A stretch of 64,000 nucleotides of DNA from Nanobdellota archaeon (GTDB lineage Archaea > Nanobdellota > Nanobdellia > Parvarchaeales > Parvarchaeaceae). Positions 207 through 64,000 of this stretch are shown piece after piece. The stretch is taken from assembly GCA_021817165.1 (NCBI GenBank), contig JAKAVT010000003.1, positions 11,844 through 75,843 on the forward strand. The letters are read 5' to 3'. The position numbers and the translations under genes are program-made. The notes under the pieces are model-generated. The model saw only the letters and a program-made list of their open reading frames with translations. It searched no databases and was not told where the DNA came from. Each line of letters starts with the position of its first letter. The first letter of the stretch is position 1.

Positions 207-1123
207 AAACGGTGACTATAATAGGGGGAAGTGGCGCAAGGAACACGTTAAAAGCGCTGAGAAAGATAAAAAACGTGAAGATAAACAATATAGTAACCAT
301 GTTTGATTCGGGTGGCTCGACCGGCTACCTTAGGAAAAAATTCGGCATTTATGCTCTTGGAGACTTAAGGGACAGGATACTTGCAGTTTCAGAAAATGAA
401 AGTCTTAGGGACATAAGCTCGCAAAGAATAGAGATGGATGGCATAAATCACAACATAGGCAATCTTCTGCTGTATGGATTAGTTAAAAAATACGACAAAG
501 GATACTTAGAAATCGCAAAAGGCATGTTTAAAACTCCGAAGAACATAGATTTCATACCTATTGTTGATAACATAAACTGCTCTGCAAATCTAGTAATAAA
601 AACCGATAAAGGGGAGTTTATAGGGGAAGATAGCCTTGACTCAAACTCAGACCGGGAGCTGAAAATACAGGATGTAAGACTCGATAAGAAAGCGAAGATA
701 AGCAGGACTGCTGCCGATGCGATAATAAAATCAGATTTTCTAATATTCGGGCCCGGAGACGTATACTCGTCGATACTGCCAAACACTCTGGTAGACGGCT
801 TCGACGATACCATTGCGAAATCGAAGGCCAAGAAAATACTCATTGTAAATATAATGAACAAGAAATCAGAAACAAACGGATTTAAGACGTCGGATTTCGT
901 AAGACTTTTCGAGAAGAAAAAGATAAAGATAGATTATATAATAATAAACGAAAAAACCCTACCAGTACAGAAGATAAAGGGGAAATATGGAAGTTTCTCG
1001 GGATGGGTTGAAAACGATCTTTCTGACAAAAGGGTGATAAAAGGAGATTTCATAAATGAAAATCTTCCATATGAGCACGATCCGAATAAGATACTTCTGC
1101 CATTAAAACGCATCATAAAGTAA
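203..1123 (+). CDS. CofD/YvcK (UPF0052) family protein
   Basis: N-terminal IIGGSGARN loop plus FDSGGSTGYLR and ALGDLRDR motifs, typical of the 2-phospho-L-lactate transferase/YvcK family. 306 aa. Confidence 0.7.
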   Translation: MKTVTIIGGSGARNTLKALRKIKNVKINNIVTMFDSGGSTGYLRKKFGIYALGDLRDRILAVSENESLRDISSQRIEMDGINHNIGNLLLYGLVKKYDKGYLEIAKGMFKTPKNIDFIPIVDNINCSANLVIKTDKGEFIGEDSLDSNSDRELKIQDVRLDKKAKISRTAADAIIKSDFLIFGPGDVYSSILPNTLVDGFDDTIAKSKAKKILIVNIMNKKSETNGFKTSDFVRLFEKKKIKIDYIIINEKTLPVQKIKGKYGSFSGWVENDLSDKRVIKGDFINENLPYEHDPNKILLPLKRIIK

Positions 1124-58966: not shown

Positions 58967-60235
58967 TTAAGTAGTAATATTTAATTCCTCTCTTATTATT
59001 GTCTCCGCTCTGTTGATTATAGACGGTGAAAAGGCTATGTTCAGCTCTCTTGTCCTGCCGTATCTACCGTGGCTTTTTATGCGCGACATGACTAATGAAT
59101 TGTAATCCATGTCAGCTATTAGATCAGAAATCCTCCTGAAGGTCAACTTCTTAAGCCCAAACTTATCAGAAAGCTTAAGATAGGCATCATAAACTTCACC
59201 ACTGTATACTTTACCCATTCTTTTGTTCCTTGCTACGGAGATAATGGACAAAAGAATGCATTTACTCTGTCTAGTCATAGATTTAATCATCCCTTCAGTA
59301 ATGTTTTGTTCCAGAGACTCCGCTGCATTATCCAATTCTTCTTCGGATATAACCGATTTGCCTAACTGTTGCGTTCTTTCTCCAGCCACTTTTAAGAGAT
59401 CCAATGCTTTCCTCACATCACCATGTTCTTGAGCGACTATGGCAGCGCACTTCCTCAAAACGCCATCACTTATGGCATTTTCATAAAATGCCTCTTTAGA
59501 ACGATTTAAGAGTATGTCAAAGATCTCTTCTGCATTGTAAGGTTTGAATATGATTTCAACTGGATTCAAGGAGCTTTTAACTCTTTGATCCAAAGAGGCT
59601 TTCAAATCAATGTTGTTTGAAATACCGATTATAGCGATCTTTGCATGCTTGAGCGACTCGTTTAACCTTAAAAGGCTATATAATACGCCATCCCCCGCAT
59701 GCTGTATCAATTTTTCTATCTCGTCTAATATCAGAATAAGGTATTTATTTTCTGCGTCTATGGTCTTTACTAGTCTTTTATACAAGCTATTGACAGAAAG
59801 GCCGCTTTCGGGAACGTTTATATTAAAAACAGCACACAAATTCGATATAAGCCGGTATTCTGTGTTATTGTTTTCAAGCCTACAGTTCATATAAACCGGA
59901 AGAACATTTACTTTCTTTTCTTCTGCAGAACTTGCTAATTTTTTGCCGACGTATTTTGTAACAAGAGATTTGCCAGTACCTGAAAAACCATAAACTAACA
60001 CATTAGAGATTCCTTCAAAGAGCAAACTAGGGGCCATAATCCTTGACAAAAGCTCTATTTCGATATTCCGATGGGTTATATCATCGGGTATAAAAGAAGA
60101 AGATAAAACCTCTTTGTTCTTAAAGATGCGTTTGCTGGTAAGAAATTCATTGAATATGACAGCTGGATCAACACTGTTTATTTTATTTGTATTTGTTTTC
60201 TGAGAAAAGTCATTGTTGGATTGAAACGTTTCCAT
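58967..60235 (-). CDS. cdc6: Orc1/Cdc6 replication initiator
   Basis: GFSGTGKS Walker A, ILILDEIE Walker B, AAA+ lid and C-terminal winged helix (RRISDLIADMDYNSLV). Adjacent to the ORB repeats. Confidence 0.95.
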   Translation of the reverse strand: METFQSNNDFSQKTNTNKINSVDPAVIFNEFLTSKRIFKNKEVLSSSFIPDDITHRNIEIELLSRIMAPSLLFEGISNVLVYGFSGTGKSLVTKYVGKKLASSAEEKKVNVLPVYMNCRLENNNTEYRLISNLCAVFNINVPESGLSVNSLYKRLVKTIDAENKYLILILDEIEKLIQHAGDGVLYSLLRLNESLKHAKIAIIGISNNIDLKASLDQRVKSSLNPVEIIFKPYNAEEIFDILLNRSKEAFYENAISDGVLRKCAAIVAQEHGDVRKALDLLKVAGERTQQLGKSVISEEELDNAAESLEQNITEGMIKSMTRQSKCILLSIISVARNKRMGKVYSGEVYDAYLKLSDKFGLKKLTFRRISDLIADMDYNSLVMSRIKSHGRYGRTRELNIAFSPSIINRAETIIREELNITT

Positions 60236-60330: not shown

Positions 60331-60357
60331 AGAGACACCTATATTTCTTATGGAAAA
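60331..60357 (-). repeat. ORB element 1 (inverted relative to ORB2/3)
   Basis: The reverse complement TTTTCCATAAGAAATATAGGTGTCTCT matches ORB3 at 21 of 25 core positions. TTCCA...GAAA core as in archaeal ORB/mini-ORB. Confidence 0.8.
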
Positions 60358-60440
60358 TAATTTAAAATAAATTTACTTGTTTTATATGTCGTATATAACT
60401 ATATATTCTATATAGAATTATAATAAATATAATAATATGG
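60358..60440. other. AT-rich duplex-unwinding element candidate
   Basis: 83 nt with 10 G/C by manual count. Lies between inverted ORB1 and ORB2 and contains the 14-bp palindrome ATTCTATATAGAAT (60405-60418). Confidence 0.6.
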
Positions 60441-60463
60441 CTTCCATAGGAAATATAGGTGTG
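60441..60463 (+). repeat. ORB element 2, followed by a half-ORB (60464-60477)
   Basis: CTTCCATAGGAAATATAGGTGTG, then TTCCATAAGAAAAT. Confidence 0.75.
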
Positions 60464-60524
60464 TTCCATAAGAAAATATTTTCGTTAAAAGATTGCAATA
60501 CAATACCGATCGTGAACAAAGTTC

Positions 60525-60550
60525 GTTCCACTGGAAATAGAGGTGTCTCT
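60525..60550 (+). repeat. ORB element 3
   Basis: GTTCCACTGGAAATAGAGGTGTCTCT, closest to the published archaeal ORB core GTTCCAGTGGAAA. Confidence 0.8.
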
Positions 60551-60637
60551 TATTACTATATATATTACTACTTTACAAAAACAATTAAATAGAAACATTT
60601 AAATATCAGTAGTTCTTAGGAAATTGAATTAAAAAGT

Positions 60638-62824
60638 ATGATAAATAAAAATATAAAAATATCTATTAGCTTTTTAGTGTTCACAATAGTAATATTTATG
60701 CTTTTCTTTGATCTAAACAACAGTAATGGTTTTTCTTGTTATAATGAAAACATAACGTTAACAAATTCTTCTAATTTTATCTGTACCTCTCAATGGGTAA
60801 TTATTGAAAAACCTGTTTCTATCATCAACGAAAGCATAATTGCAAAAGGGTTGTTCATAAATAATACTTTTAGTATTACTGGAAATTCTACCTTGAATAT
60901 CAGCACAATAATAAACAAAGGGAATGCCACAATAAACGCAACGTTGATCGGCGGAAATATTTTTGAGAATTACAGAACTCTGTTGTTAGAAAAACCAATT
61001 TTCATTAACTTTAGCTATTTCTTAAACAAAGGCCTTATTATAGATAAGAATTATTTGAATAATGGCGGTTACTCCAACACCTATTTTTCTTATGATGGAA
61101 ATAACTATGGGTGTAAAGGTGAAAGCTATCCTTTTTCATATGCGGGAAGCGGCGGTGGAAGCCTAGCTACATATAGTCAATGTAATGGAGGAAATACTCT
61201 AGTAACAGGAGGACTTGGCCAAGTTACTAGTTACATAAACCATGTACTATACCCAATATATAATAGCTCTGGTAATCATGTTTATCTTTCACCATCTAAT
61301 TATTCCTTTAATTTAAGTTTGTTGAGCAGTTCTGGCGGAGCATCTTACAATAGTGTAAATAACACATCTCTTTTCATGCGTGGTAGCAGTGGAGTATTAC
61401 CTTTGATAATAATCTCAAAATCTTTTAACAACGTTGGCAGCATTTACAATCAGGGCCAGTCAATAAATTATTCTGCGATAAAGAATGCAAGCAAATTCCT
61501 TGCCTTTGGAATTGTAGGAGCAGGCGGCGGAGGGGTTATTGAAGTTATTTCTGATTTATTTATCAATAATGGCACTTTTAATGTAATTGGAGGTAAAATC
61601 TATCTCAATGGTTCGCTTGGACTACCCTCTCCCTATACTACTTCCAATCTTGGATATGGTGGTAATGGAAATGTATTTTTCTTTAAAGCAAACAATAAAT
61701 TGCTGTTAAATTCCATACATAATTATAATTGGGGTTTACCATCCCAAAGCGCATATAATCCTAATTCTTCGAGCAACTTATCTAATAAAATACAAAATTA
61801 CTCCGTTACAGCAAAGCTTGAAGCACTTCCCGACTGTAGTTTAAATGGGATTTACATAAATTTAAAAGGATACTACAATAACAACAGTTTTACAAAAGTG
61901 CAGCCTATCAGTGATCCAATCTTTTGGGTAAACAGATCAAACACAAACCTCTCTTTATTTCTGTCTGGCAACAACCCTTTGATTCATTATTACAGTAATT
62001 TGAGCATAATTCTCAGTAATGCATCAAATACAAGCATAGAAACGTTAAATTTAAGTCAATATCTGCCAGTTAATATAAATTTTTTGGGAAGCCAAAATTT
62101 AAGTTTTAAATTACTTAAAAACAGCGAGGTTGTATCCTCCGGCATAAGTTCGTCAGGATTCTACTCGTTTGAATTGGAACAGGGAAAATACTCTCTGTTG
62201 TTTGAGGACGGTTCTAGTAATTATACTTATGGTTTATACGTTGCTCCGAATTGCCTTGGTTATGAGAATATTGCAATCTCACCAGGAAAATCCTATTATC
62301 TTTATGATTCACTAAATGTCTCTTCAATACCGTTTATATATAACGCCAACCAAACCGTAAGGGAGATAACATCCTATCAGAGTATTAACAGCTGCAATTT
62401 CAATATCTCGGTTTTAATAGATTTAGATAAATCGATACTTAGCAGTCTTTCTTCCATGAACAGTAGCATATCTTCTGTGTCAAGTAACAAGATTAACTAC
62501 GCAAACATTCTAAGTGAAATAAATTACACAAATTACGTGTTAACTGCACACAATACAAAAATTCCTCAAAAACCCCAGAATGTCTCTTTAAATCAAAGCG
62601 GTTTAACCATTCTTTCTTATTATAATACAGGAAATTTCACAAAAGAAGTTTTACAGTTAAGCAGCAATGGGACAATAAACCTAAGCTATGGCGCAAACAA
62701 TAGAATCCAAATCGTGGTAACAAAAGAGAATACGCAGAACATCTTTGTATCCACAGAAAAGGACATTATAAAGGTGTTTAGCTATGTCCCTTCGCTTTTT
62801 CTTGGGTTTTTGGGAGGTTTGTGA
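60638..62824 (+). CDS. large sequon-rich secreted/surface protein with glycine-rich GGxGG motifs (putative beta-helical adhesin-like protein)
   Basis: N-terminal TM/signal (ISISFLVFTIVIFMLFF), dozens of N-x-S/T sequons, motifs YAGSGGGSLA, GIVGAGGGGVIEV and GYGGNGNVFFF, and a hydrophobic C-terminus. Confidence 0.5.
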   Translation: MINKNIKISISFLVFTIVIFMLFFDLNNSNGFSCYNENITLTNSSNFICTSQWVIIEKPVSIINESIIAKGLFINNTFSITGNSTLNISTIINKGNATINATLIGGNIFENYRTLLLEKPIFINFSYFLNKGLIIDKNYLNNGGYSNTYFSYDGNNYGCKGESYPFSYAGSGGGSLATYSQCNGGNTLVTGGLGQVTSYINHVLYPIYNSSGNHVYLSPSNYSFNLSLLSSSGGASYNSVNNTSLFMRGSSGVLPLIIISKSFNNVGSIYNQGQSINYSAIKNASKFLAFGIVGAGGGGVIEVISDLFINNGTFNVIGGKIYLNGSLGLPSPYTTSNLGYGGNGNVFFFKANNKLLLNSIHNYNWGLPSQSAYNPNSSSNLSNKIQNYSVTAKLEALPDCSLNGIYINLKGYYNNNSFTKVQPISDPIFWVNRSNTNLSLFLSGNNPLIHYYSNLSIILSNASNTSIETLNLSQYLPVNINFLGSQNLSFKLLKNSEVVSSGISSSGFYSFELEQGKYSLLFEDGSSNYTYGLYVAPNCLGYENIAISPGKSYYLYDSLNVSSIPFIYNANQTVREITSYQSINSCNFNISVLIDLDKSILSSLSSMNSSISSVSSNKINYANILSEINYTNYVLTAHNTKIPQKPQNVSLNQSGLTILSYYNTGNFTKEVLQLSSNGTINLSYGANNRIQIVVTKENTQNIFVSTEKDIIKVFSYVPSLFLGFLGGL

Positions 62825-63450
62825 TGGAAGACGAATTAAAGCAGCTTTACGAAGCAGTATTGAAGATAAATGAAAAACTTTCACAGGTAAACAGTAAGAA
62901 TGATCAGCTTGAATCGCTTATAAATGCGATGTCCCAGTATATCTTAGAAAAAAATGAAGGAGATATAACAGAGCAGGAGATCGTTGTGCTGGATCCGTTT
63001 AATATAGGAGGATACAAAAACGTTTCAACTGCAAATGGTAGCGTTCTGAAAGTAAGGTCGAAAGGCCTCTGTGTAAACGGAAGACATTCTGTGGATGAAA
63101 GCTCTTCTGTTGTTATATGTTCAAAATGCAATGGAATAGTATGCGAGAAGCATGACACTGGGCTTTCTCCTCCGCTGTGTGCAAATTGCATAAAGGACCA
63201 GATAAAAGAGCTGGAACTTTTGCATATTTACATACTTAATGCAGTTAATCTGGGCCTGAATTTAAATGATCTCAGGAAAATAGTAAAGGGTTCTTCTCGG
63301 GAATTCAGCATTGCACAGCAAAAGCTGTTAAAAGCAGGCTATCTAGAAAGAGATATTCTTTTCAGAAAGATATTGACTACAAAAGGGGCTTCGGCACTTG
63401 CCCTTGGCAGTAAAGTATATGATCTTTCTTTTATGCAGCAAGGTGAATGA
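62824..63450 (+). CDS. coiled-coil + Zn-ribbon + C-terminal winged-helix protein
   Basis: N-terminal heptad-like helix, CSKCNGIVC...CANC four-Cys ribbon, and a C-terminal SIAQQKLLKAGYLERD wHTH-like segment. ATG overlaps the upstream TGA (GTGATGG). ORF-track start 62821 is GTG. Confidence 0.5.
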   Translation: MEDELKQLYEAVLKINEKLSQVNSKNDQLESLINAMSQYILEKNEGDITEQEIVVLDPFNIGGYKNVSTANGSVLKVRSKGLCVNGRHSVDESSSVVICSKCNGIVCEKHDTGLSPPLCANCIKDQIKELELLHIYILNAVNLGLNLNDLRKIVKGSSREFSIAQQKLLKAGYLERDILFRKILTTKGASALALGSKVYDLSFMQQGE

Positions 63451-64000
63451 ATGGAAGAAGTGCTTCAGGAAATCGTTGAAAAATTACGTTTTTTGAAAGA
63501 ATTTACTGACGTTAAAAATATAGAGAATTTTATTGCAAGATTAAACAAAACAAAAGATCCAGAGATGCAAGCATTTCTATTGTCGAAAATAACGTCCGAA
63601 TTTCAAAGACTGGAGGCAATGTTTCCAGTTTCTGACCCGTCTTTTCCAGCAATTAAAATCAAAGAAGGAGGGTTGGAAATAGGTGATTTAATCTATAAAG
63701 GCCAAAAAATAGGCAGGTTTTCGTTGTCTGTTGAAGATTTGAATAGAAACGTGCTTATAATCGGCTCCACAGGCCATGGCAAAACCTCCCTCATACATAG
63801 TATATTGCAAAAGTCGGCTAAGAAGGGCATAAACTATCTTGTATTTGACATGAAAAAGGATTACAAGACATTAAGCTTAGACAAGGATTCCGTTTATATT
63901 GACGCGGAAGATTTAAAGATAAATCCTCTAGAGGCGCCAATCAATACCAAAGAGGCAGACTGGGCAGTTCATTTTGCGGACATTTTTTCAGACAGCTTTT
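63451..64000 (+). CDS. HerA/FtsK-superfamily (DUF87-like) P-loop ATPase, N-terminal part; 3' end outside window
   Basis: ATG directly follows the upstream stop. Barrel-like segment GLEIGDLIYKGQKIGRFSLSVEDL, then NVLIIGSTGHGKTS Walker A, LVFDMKKDY and INPL, as in HerA/VirB4/TraG-like ATPases. Confidence 0.7.
   Translation, partial: MEEVLQEIVEKLRFLKEFTDVKNIENFIARLNKTKDPEMQAFLLSKITSEFQRLEAMFPVSDPSFPAIKIKEGGLEIGDLIYKGQKIGRFSLSVEDLNRNVLIIGSTGHGKTSLIHSILQKSAKKGINYLVFDMKKDYKTLSLDKDSVYIDAEDLKINPLEAPINTKEADWAVHFADIFSDSF

Follow-up and report, generated by a model that had tools for sequence, protein, structure and literature searches.

An origin-linked operon of Parvarchaeota that joins a putative surface glycoprotein to a HerA/VirB4-fold ATPase: a candidate domesticated DNA-translocation module

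We investigated a three-gene operon at the right end of a 64,000-nucleotide stretch of contig JAKAVT010000003.1 (the whole stretch is called the window). The host is Candidatus Parvarchaeum, an ultra-small, ARMAN-4-like DPANN archaeon of acid-mine habitats. Genes A, B and C of the operon encode a predicted secreted glycoprotein, a cytoplasmic zinc and winged-helix protein, and an ATPase with a HerA/VirB4-type fold, and they stand beside a putative replication origin. The trio was co-conserved in Parvarchaeota across the order to which the host belongs, and homologs of proteins B and C were found next to each other on archaeal mobile elements. Tentatively, and as one possibility among several, we read the operon as a domesticated module for DNA translocation through the cell envelope, derived from such an element. 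An earlier note, written from the letters of this DNA alone, had described the operon as a module of no recognized kind. This held insofar as it corresponds to no known system, and the genes 3' of gene C did not reveal one; the mobile elements on which B and C homologs adjoin, which carry integrase or primase genes, provide the relationship that the note had missed.

The three genes are packed without spacers (Table 1). The stop codon of gene A (TGA, 62822–62824) shares its A with the ATG of gene B, giving TGATG at 62822–62826, and the stop codon of gene B (TGA, 63448–63450) abuts the ATG of gene C (63451–63453); the raw sequence agreed exactly with the 1-nt overlap and 0-nt spacing read previously. 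An alternative in-frame GTG at 62821 would extend protein B to 209 amino acids. The tight packing recurred in relatives: the A-to-B junction measured between -11 and +7 nt in 18/18 orthologous loci examined, an open reading frame (ORF) with an A-type hydrophobic tail lay directly 5' of gene B in all 18 loci inspected, and gene B lay directly 5' of gene C in each of the 29 loci with upstream sequence. The tightly coupled operon proposed earlier is thus real, and the further components expected past position 64000 were found, comprising the rest of gene C, a two-helix membrane protein (E) and a pilin-like protein (F).

To examine the distribution of the operon, we fetched loci and contigs (labeled L001–L052), built protein alignments (A1–A6), numbered the ATPase sequences with P numbers, and located A, B, C, E, F and Orc1 on the fetched loci. 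Protein B was matched exactly on 24 contigs, several of which agreed with the last 8 kb of the window at 99.9% identity. The scan of one genome per GTDB species yielded 25 loci, all from Parvarchaeota under various labels, and homologs of protein C came without exception from Parvarchaeota-type metagenome-assembled genomes (MAGs), in agreement with the DPANN host that had been suspected. Identity to protein C was 76% for BJBARM4_0266 of ARMAN-4, 52% for BJBARM5_0382 of ARMAN-5 and 36% at the lowest. The A-B-C block was retained in every evaluable Parvarchaeota locus; it was kept amid rearrangement, since the genes beyond orc1 on one side and beyond E on the other vary among lineages. Across 14 loci the identity of protein C to that of the window tracked the identity of Orc1 (Pearson r = 0.93), suggesting vertical inheritance of a functional unit, and the GC content of the operon gave no sign of recent acquisition. 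At loci where Orc1 was 66–76% identical, C was ~37–38%, B 32–37% and A 20–29% identical, showing that the module evolves much faster than Orc1. Our literature searches found no paper on these genes, and a search for the ARMAN-4/5 locus tags of the operon returned nothing.

Protein C was complete on contig L002, and its AlphaFold2 model had a predicted local distance difference test (pLDDT) score of 83. The motor superposed on HerA, VirB4, DndH-C and TrwB, and Foldseek matched it in the PDB to HerA (4d2i, E = 7.8e-15), VirB4 (4ag5, 1e-13) and TrwB (1gl6, 3.5e-9) over ~370–390 columns. Pfam DUF87 (PF01935), whose cut-off is 23.2 bits, scored 48.8 bits with the window fragment and 44.8 bits with the full protein. 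These results bear out the placement in the HerA/VirB4/FtsK superfamily that had been proposed from the motifs NVLIIGSTGHGKTS, LVFDMKKDY and INPL, all present in the protein. The motor contains Walker A (GSTGHGKTS), Walker B (VIDDAH) and SDQQ motifs, and G108, H109, G110, K111, T112, S113, D305, D306, R334, Q345 and Q346 were invariant in 21 sequences (alignment A1). A hydropathy scan of protein C detected no membrane segment.

Among functionally named families, the one closest to protein C was CedD, the ATPase of the Ced DNA-import system of Sulfolobales (NCBIfam, 48–49 bits against a cut-off of 600; query residues 10–366, model positions 132–479). The alignment thus includes part of the N-terminal helical region of protein C. 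The CedD model matched 29/32 members of the family and outgroup (best E 6.6e-25), followed by HerA models (17–18 members), VirB4 (14 members, best E 5.8e-16), and then CedB and TraC. Protein C itself scored 33 bits with CedB (cut-off 700), 36.6 bits with TIGR00929 (643), 46.7 with PRK13721 (1177) and 28 with TIGR02746 (567), the VirB4/TraC matches being confined to the C-terminal ATPase part of the models. All scores are far below the curated cut-offs, so protein C stands outside these named families. One uncharacterized model, NF033849 (ser_rich_anae_1, 1,163 positions), outdid every functionally named family for C and its relatives, matching 30/32 ATPases through its C-terminal part (best E 1.8e-27). 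The Pfam FtsK_SpoIIIE model gave 12.4–14.3 bits (cut-off 24) and was touched by 5/25 outgroup relatives (best E 5.7e-7), and a few relatives touched the type VII secretion models EccC/EssC. Matches in PADLOC-DB 2.0 were limited to generic HerA and mad8 (best 7.9e-13), with no model matched by A, B, D, E or F, and PDB profile and structure matches included SIR2-HerA, DUF4297-HerA and DndH/DptH. By tblastn, thousands of F-type TraC genes aligned at 25.6% identity to residues 23–317. The earlier note had found no identifiable conjugation set; the operon is indeed not a canonical one, but a link to conjugation-type DNA transfer exists, because CedD is the best named family of C.

The motor is followed by a winged helix and by a C-terminal domain with the modeled topology alpha-beta-beta-beta-alpha-beta-alpha-beta. 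In outgroup ATPases four residues of this domain (H, E, D and E) occupy fixed columns in the pattern GxxEH...E...D...hAhEhE (e.g. P0093, residues 560–615). From topology and motif together we infer a PD-(D/E)xK-like nuclease fold, and the outgroup proteins may accordingly be fusions of a HerA-like motor to a nuclease; Pfam and PDB sequence searches did not name the fold of the outgroup domain. Every member of the Parvarchaeota C family has lost all four H/E/D/E residues, a loss that is typical of domestication.

The AlphaFold2 model of protein B (pLDDT 86.5) contains an N-terminal helix (residues 2–43), a beta-rich domain (54–126) and a winged helix (132–198). The coiled coil and winged helix that had been read from the sequence were retained by AlphaFold and Foldseek; the '4-Cys ribbon' was replaced by eight ligands, six Cys and two His (C83, H88, C99, C102, C107, H110, C119 and C122, in the pattern C-x4-H-x10-C-x2-C-x4-C-x2-H-x8-C-x2-C), which were invariant in 29 sequences (alignments A2 and A3) and therefore point to two zinc sites. 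Foldseek returned for protein B only winged helices of the MarR/MntR/DtxR type (MexR, Rv2887 and MntR; E 0.015–0.03, probability 1.0, 80–90 columns, template modeling score by target ~0.48). Pfam HTH_34 reached 13.8 bits, below its cut-off of 27, and scans of Pfam, NCBIfam, PADLOC and PHROGs gave nothing usable. The 39 homologs of protein B (E < 1e-63) were all from Parvarchaeota. One of them bears the name 'ZapA' (JGI), an automatic and unsupported label that we did not use.

Protein A begins with a Sec-type signal peptide, and a signal-like hydrophobic segment was present at the N-terminus of every full-length ortholog. The protein contains 41 N-x-S/T sequons, compared with 19.9 ± 3.9 in shuffled sequences (z = 5.4) and ~1 per 100 amino acids in B, C, D, E and Orc1, and it is poor in charged residues (0.7% R, 1.5% D). 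The secreted, sequon-rich nature claimed before was borne out by the N-termini of the orthologs and the sequon excess, and the composition supports well the prediction of an exported N-glycoprotein of an acidophile. The N-terminal half (~350 amino acids) is conserved and rich in glycine (SYAGSGGGG, AGGGGVIEVI), with repeated FxxN-like turns and with invariant Gly and Asn columns in alignment A4; it probably forms a beta-solenoid. The C-terminal half varies rapidly and can hardly be aligned across lineages. Orthologs end in hydrophobic tails, and the short length of this stretch makes a membrane anchor uncertain. Searches with protein A of Pfam, NCBIfam, PADLOC, PHROGs and, by sequence profile, the PDB gave no usable match.

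Next, we searched for relatives of the module beyond Parvarchaeota. The exhaustive profile search outside the family found 163 C relatives at E < 1e-30 and 2,168 at E < 1e-10, many of them full length (620–700 amino acids). The link to mobile elements rests on five readable contexts, namely L043, L044/45, L046/47, L051 and L052. In the first three, the ATPase gene is preceded by a gene for a 65–74-amino-acid protein of two hydrophobic helices, and 5' of that lies a gene for a protein of 160–225 amino acids with four CxxC pairs and a winged helix, which hhalign identified as homologous to B (probability 98.5%, E 2.2e-15, 146 columns). The small two-helix proteins are only 15–23% identical among themselves. 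A tyrosine integrase is present in L043, and L046 encodes a second ATPase, of the DUF87/Zot kind. L052 has the appearance of an integrative element of the conjugation type: beside an integrase and a D5-type primase-helicase, it encodes a second ATPase (AAA_10/VirB4-like), a two-helix membrane protein, and a secreted protein that is rich in sequons and has an anchor at its C-terminus; its Cys-rich and two-helix proteins resemble those of the other contexts only loosely. Restriction–modification or toxin–antitoxin genes occur near the ATPase in L044 and L051. The elements with the B–(two-helix protein)–ATPase module look like an undescribed family of archaeal integrative elements. By tblastn with the Parvarchaeota ATPase P0001 and the distant mobile-element relative P0093 as queries, plasmids returned bacterial TraC, unrelated 'ATP-binding protein' islands and truncated haloarchaeal fragments, and the annotated neighborhoods were uninformative. 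A pleolipovirus-like provirus remnant (spike plus nucleoside triphosphatase) was considered and dropped, as Foldseek of the ATPase model against viral structures returned generic motors only, with nothing that pointed to archaeal viruses, and phage tblastn was almost empty.

One strain lineage carries a disrupted operon. In contigs from at least four samples (L003:188–8354, L005, L007 and L008), gene A is interrupted by an 8,167-bp element that has inverted repeats, CAGTACTTCCGAA(T/A)GT, at its termini and has duplicated 5 bp of its target, CAATG, corresponding to window positions 61178–61182. The cargo comprises a DDE_Tnp_1 transposase, a Dcm-type methylase, Vsr, DUF3800 and DUF6998. In L007 the right end is the same and the cargo is another (N6/N4 methylases and an NmeDI-like enzyme), indicating a restriction–modification transposon that swaps its cargo. 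These contigs also share a 1-bp deletion in gene C, TTT to TT at nt 810, ~260 bp past the window end, which splits the protein into parts of 276 and 359 amino acids; L010 shares the point substitutions of the lineage in gene C and retains an intact ATPase. The operon is decaying in this lineage. Since there is a lineage in which a transposon interrupts A and a frameshift splits C, the module is dispensable in nature, which weighs against an essential role in chromosome segregation and fits an accessory function.

The operon is divergent from an orc1/cdc6 gene, whose product matched the NCBIfam ORC1-type model (399.8 bits), TIGR02928 (358.6 bits, cut-off 181.3) and the Pfam domains Cdc6_lid and Cdc6_C. 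The spacer of ~400 bp between orc1 and gene A contains three repeats around an AT-rich core, one inverted (60331–60355) and two direct (60442–60466 and 60526–60550), found by repeat search (families D1 and I1) and by reading the sequence. We take these repeats, from general knowledge of archaeal origins, to be origin-recognition boxes (ORBs), and their arrangement with an AT-rich core beside orc1 is presumably the textbook layout of an archaeal oriC; the label of origin given to this spacer earlier is reasonable. GC skew follows the gene strand and supports an origin weakly. The 51-amino-acid ORF called at 60437–60592 extends over two of the repeats and is probably spurious. The orc1 gene lay divergent and 5' of gene A in 15/16 evaluable Parvarchaeota loci, the exception being L036.

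Gene C is followed on the same strand by D, E, F and a DeoC-like gene, after which the strand switches. Protein E (182 amino acids) has two membrane helices and a basic, sequon-free tail of 85 amino acids, and matched no family. Gene E follows in most lineages. Gene F accompanies E in the ARMAN-4/5 clade only; its Cys-rich product matched no family model and starts, as read by eye, with MKG|QGLPISTLIII..., in which Gln and a hydrophobic helix follow a basic residue and Gly, an N-terminus that looks like a type IV pilin signal.

These observations suggest how the operon might work. An apparatus for surface translocation or cell–cell interaction, as the note had envisaged, is a possible function. 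In the scheme that we favor tentatively, a lineage-specific machine would move DNA across the envelope, uptake or exchange being the most likely use; DNA movement itself is something we infer. Its ancestor would have been the transfer module of an archaeal mobile element, fixed beside oriC in the ancestor of Parvarchaeota. Protein A, exported by Sec and N-glycosylated, would sit on the cell surface, with the glycine-rich solenoid as a structural part and the fast-evolving C-terminal half in contact with a partner cell or substrate. The two-helix hairpin of protein E would anchor the soluble ATPase C at the membrane, where C, whose fold and intact ATPase site are observed, could act as a hexameric motor of the HerA/VirB4/CedD type that threads DNA, its winged helix and nuclease-like domain holding the DNA and not cutting it. 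Protein B may oligomerize through its N-terminal helix, and its two-zinc domain and winged helix may recognize DNA, or the promoter of the operon, and couple DNA to C. Imported DNA could supply nucleotides and be used in recombination; a use of this kind is plausible because Parvarchaeota lack de novo nucleotide synthesis (PMC7779479). Almost no recognizable genes for cell–cell interaction have been reported for them (PMC7779479).

Co-conservation, the intact motor, the kinship with CedD and VirB4, the DNA-binding modules, the envelope parts and the relatives on mobile elements together make DNA transfer a possible reading, still short of a probable one. The fuller version, in which all Parvarchaeota carry a DNA-transfer apparatus captured from an integrative element and fixed beside oriC that imports host or neighbor DNA into nucleotide-auxotrophic episymbionts, is rather doubtful; that the orc1–oriC pair came from the same captured element is a possibility. 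Several points weigh against DNA transfer. Structure and PDB profile searches placed HerA, VirB4 and DndH about equally close to protein C and did not separate the clades, and the scores of C to CedD, VirB4 and TraC are far under the cut-offs (48 bits against 600; 37–47 against 567–1177). The operon has neither a CedA/VirB6-like polytopic channel nor a recognizable pilin of the VirB2/CedA1/TedC kind, and gene E is missing from the immediate neighborhood in several lineages. Protein A, with its own Sec signal, may merely be a co-expressed adhesin, and protein B could be only a transcriptional regulator. Given the restriction–modification or toxin–antitoxin genes near L044 and L051, some relatives of C on elements could be defense genes rather than transfer genes.

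Four other explanations were weighed. The operon might export or assemble surface structures, with C energizing the display of A (and F) as an adhesin or fiber for host attachment and B acting as regulator. Type VII secretion uses FtsK-like ATPases, a few relatives of C touch EccC/EssC, translation of B is coupled in every lineage to that of A, the first gene, pilin-like proteins occur 5' of A in L036 (with a glycine run) and as F in the extended operon, and the winged helix of B resembles MarR-type regulators. However, protein A has an ordinary Sec-type signal peptide and so needs no dedicated motor, F is limited to the ARMAN-4/5 clade, and C carries a winged helix and the remnant of a nuclease fold, its best named relatives moving DNA. 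The operon also lacks a PilB/FlaI-type ATPase and a PilC-type platform, as expected from the earlier remark that this is not a canonical pilus locus. We regard this explanation as unlikely. A pump for chromosomes linked to the origin, analogous to FtsK/SpoIIIE, appears quite unlikely. Here B would bind near oriC, C tethered by E would pump or resolve sister chromosomes at division, and A would be an envelope or septum protein. The position beside orc1 and an ORB origin at 15 of 16 evaluable loci despite the breakdown of synteny, the membership of C in the FtsK-HerA superfamily with a winged helix after the motor like the FtsK gamma domain, the outgroup relatives that touch FtsK_SpoIIIE and the vertical inheritance all accord with it. 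On the other hand, the disrupted lineage persists in at least four samples, which one would not expect of segregation machinery in a ~1-Mb genome; the operon proteins evolve much faster than Orc1 (37% identity for C against 66–76%); relatives lie on mobile elements; C lacks an FtsK-type membrane domain and falls below the FtsK_SpoIIIE cut-off; and the 'ZapA' label, being unsupported, adds nothing.

HerA-family ATPases power several defense systems, and the operon might protect against viruses or plasmids in the manner of a HerA-plus-effector system, with C sensing or degrading foreign DNA, B as sensor or regulator and the membrane proteins as effectors. This would agree with the PDB matches to SIR2-HerA, DUF4297-HerA and DndH/DptH, with the generic HerA and mad8 hits of PADLOC, with element relatives that have an apparently intact nuclease-like motif and lie near restriction–modification and toxin–antitoxin genes, and with a fast-evolving, dispensable module in which a transposon carrying restriction–modification genes has landed. 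Defense systems are usually patchy and horizontally mobile, whereas this operon occupies the same chromosomal site across the order and is inherited vertically. Moreover, the nuclease-like residues were lost in exactly the Parvarchaeota family, no system-specific PADLOC model was found for A, B, D, E or F, and a large, translationally coupled extracellular glycoprotein would be an unusual defense component; we consider a defense role improbable. Least probable by far is a functionless remnant of an ancient element integrated beside the origin, even with relatives on mobile elements, a lost nuclease-like site and decay in one strain lineage, since three frames that stay open and coupled across lineages at 20–40% identity, with invariant ATPase residues and zinc ligands, require purifying selection. 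What probability remains falls to something outside these readings.

Comparison with described systems places DNA transfer in context. DNA import in Sulfolobus requires CedD, some forms of which have no membrane segment and have been proposed to dock through other membrane proteins (PMC11823120; PMC11868833). The DNA importers Ced and Ted are conjugation machines that have been domesticated on the chromosome, and according to the authors such domestication is unreported elsewhere (PMC9905601). The operon resembles them as a chromosomal module with an ATPase of the HerA/VirB4 superfamily and a small two-helix membrane protein, in the scenario of domestication from a mobile element, and in that C, like some CedD proteins, lacks a membrane segment. 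However, the operon, which is the part of the genome examined for them, contains neither cedA (six to seven membrane helices) nor cedA1/A2; Ced has two ATPases and the operon one, and the operon adds parts unknown in Ced, namely protein B, the large glycoprotein A, and the additional winged helix and dead nuclease-like domain of C. The hosts differ as well, Ced belonging to a hyperthermophilic crenarchaeon and the operon to a mesophilic or acidophilic DPANN archaeon. With VirB4/TraC and VirD4/TrwB, protein C has the motor fold in common, and the tiny two-helix gene directly 5' of the ATPase gene in the mobile-element relatives recalls the order virB3-virB4; C lacks, however, the N-terminal domain of VirB4 and the membrane anchor of VirD4, the other components of a type IV secretion system are missing from the operon, and no protein of the operon has more than two predicted membrane helices.

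Sulfolobus HerA is the best structural match of C, and the fusion of the motor to a nuclease-like domain in the element relatives functionally recalls HerA with NurA. In contrast to HerA, the N-terminus of C is helical and the nuclease-like residues are lost. The earlier exclusion of a NurA-HerA pair was confirmed: the AlphaFold2 model of protein C shows three helices at residues 2–57 and no HAS-barrel, protein C scored 18–20 bits with the HerA equivalog NF040937 (cut-off 800), and no NurA, Mre11 or Rad50 gene was found within 10 kb on either side in L001–L010 or in the divergent loci. The core 'DNA-transfer' module of pT26-2-family plasmids in Thermococcales and Methanococcales (PMC6972569) is likewise an orphan archaeal module that combines many membrane or secreted proteins with one HerA/VirB4-like ATPase, on integrative elements, with a proposed role in DNA passage through membranes; these modules stay on plasmids or integrated plasmids, whereas the operon is a fixed chromosomal locus, and the likeness is one of description. 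FtsK/SpoIIIE share with C the superfamily, a winged helix that follows the motor and a link to a landmark of the chromosome, which is the origin for the operon and the terminus/dif for FtsK; they differ in the membrane domain that C lacks, in the Pfam model that C does not reach, and in the dispensability and fast evolution of the module. A T2SSE/T2SSF pair 5 kb from the operon was found in one relative only (L011).

The ATPase superfamily and the concept of chromosomal DNA transfer are known; what is new is the set of parts, in which A, B and E are combined with a nuclease-dead tail on C and a fixed place next to oriC. The operon bears on the means by which ultra-small DPANN archaea acquire DNA, nucleotides and genes from their hosts, as an order-wide candidate that joins a surface glycoprotein to a DNA-type motor. 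If it does import DNA, the idea of the domesticated conjugation machine would extend from the Ced and Ted systems of hyperthermophilic Crenarchaeota (PMC9905601) to DPANN archaea with different parts, and archaea would have domesticated a conjugation-like machine a second time, independently. Existing metagenomes already provide a comparison, in the form of the natural knock-out lineage. Whatever the function, A, B and E represent protein families without annotation, and the B–(two-helix protein)–ATPase module, whose ATPase has a nuclease-like domain, is a previously undescribed component of archaeal mobile elements.

Table 1. Features of the operon and its surroundings. Plain numbers are window positions; L002 is a contig that carries the complete gene C; residue numbers refer to protein C.
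Feature	Location	Strand	Description	Basis
Gene A	60638–62824	+	728 amino acids; predicted secreted surface protein rich in N-glycosylation sequons	ORF
Gene B	62824–63450	+	208 amino acids from ATG; zinc/winged-helix protein, predicted cytoplasmic	ORF
Gene C, first 183 codons	63451–64000 (window end)	+	HerA/VirB4-fold ATPase	Translation
Gene C, full length	L002:10628–12517	Same as A and B	629 amino acids	
Protein C domains	Residues 1–57; ~75–410; 444–509; 527–623		Helical N-terminal region (three helices, 2–57); motor; winged helix; alpha-beta domain	
Gene D	L002:12581–13324		247 amino acids, soluble; HEEVH (HExxH, zincin-like) motif	
Gene F	L002:13959–14312		117 amino acids, Cys-rich; N-terminus MKGQGLPISTLIIIILGILILV	
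orc1/cdc6	58967–60235	-	Replication initiator gene, divergent neighbor of the operon	
Putative replication origin	60331–60550		Three ORB-like repeats around an AT-rich stretch, core TTCCAnnGGAAATAnAGGTGT	

Gene D was confined to the ARMAN-4 clade and its product matched no family; L019, L020, L023 and L024 have an additional 1.5–2.4 kb between the ATPase gene and gene D. On the ARMAN-5 scaffold (L012:10562–10894), the product of gene F has 110 amino acids and diverges after about residue 38, and tblastn found the rest in another frame, which we read as a frameshift or an assembly error.

Some minor observations were made on the fetched loci. In L036, the place of orc1 5' of gene A is taken by a gene for a type-IV-pilin-like protein (282–1652; signal ...SQSAVDFLFTYGWMILVLVVV), whose globular part contains a long glycine run (VYITAVGGGGGGGGGASD) that recalls the glycine-rich core of protein A, and the two proteins may share a domain. 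The mobile-element contigs also encode a TFIIB-type zinc ribbon (L043:6455–6700), the D5_N/DUF5906 primase-helicase (L052:13466–15577) and the second DUF87/Zot-like ATPase (L046:1–715). In a related Parvarchaeota MAG (L016:9771–11861), Pfam identified a thiamine pyrophosphate-binding subunit of the pyruvate:ferredoxin-oxidoreductase type that contains an intein with a LAGLIDADG endonuclease.

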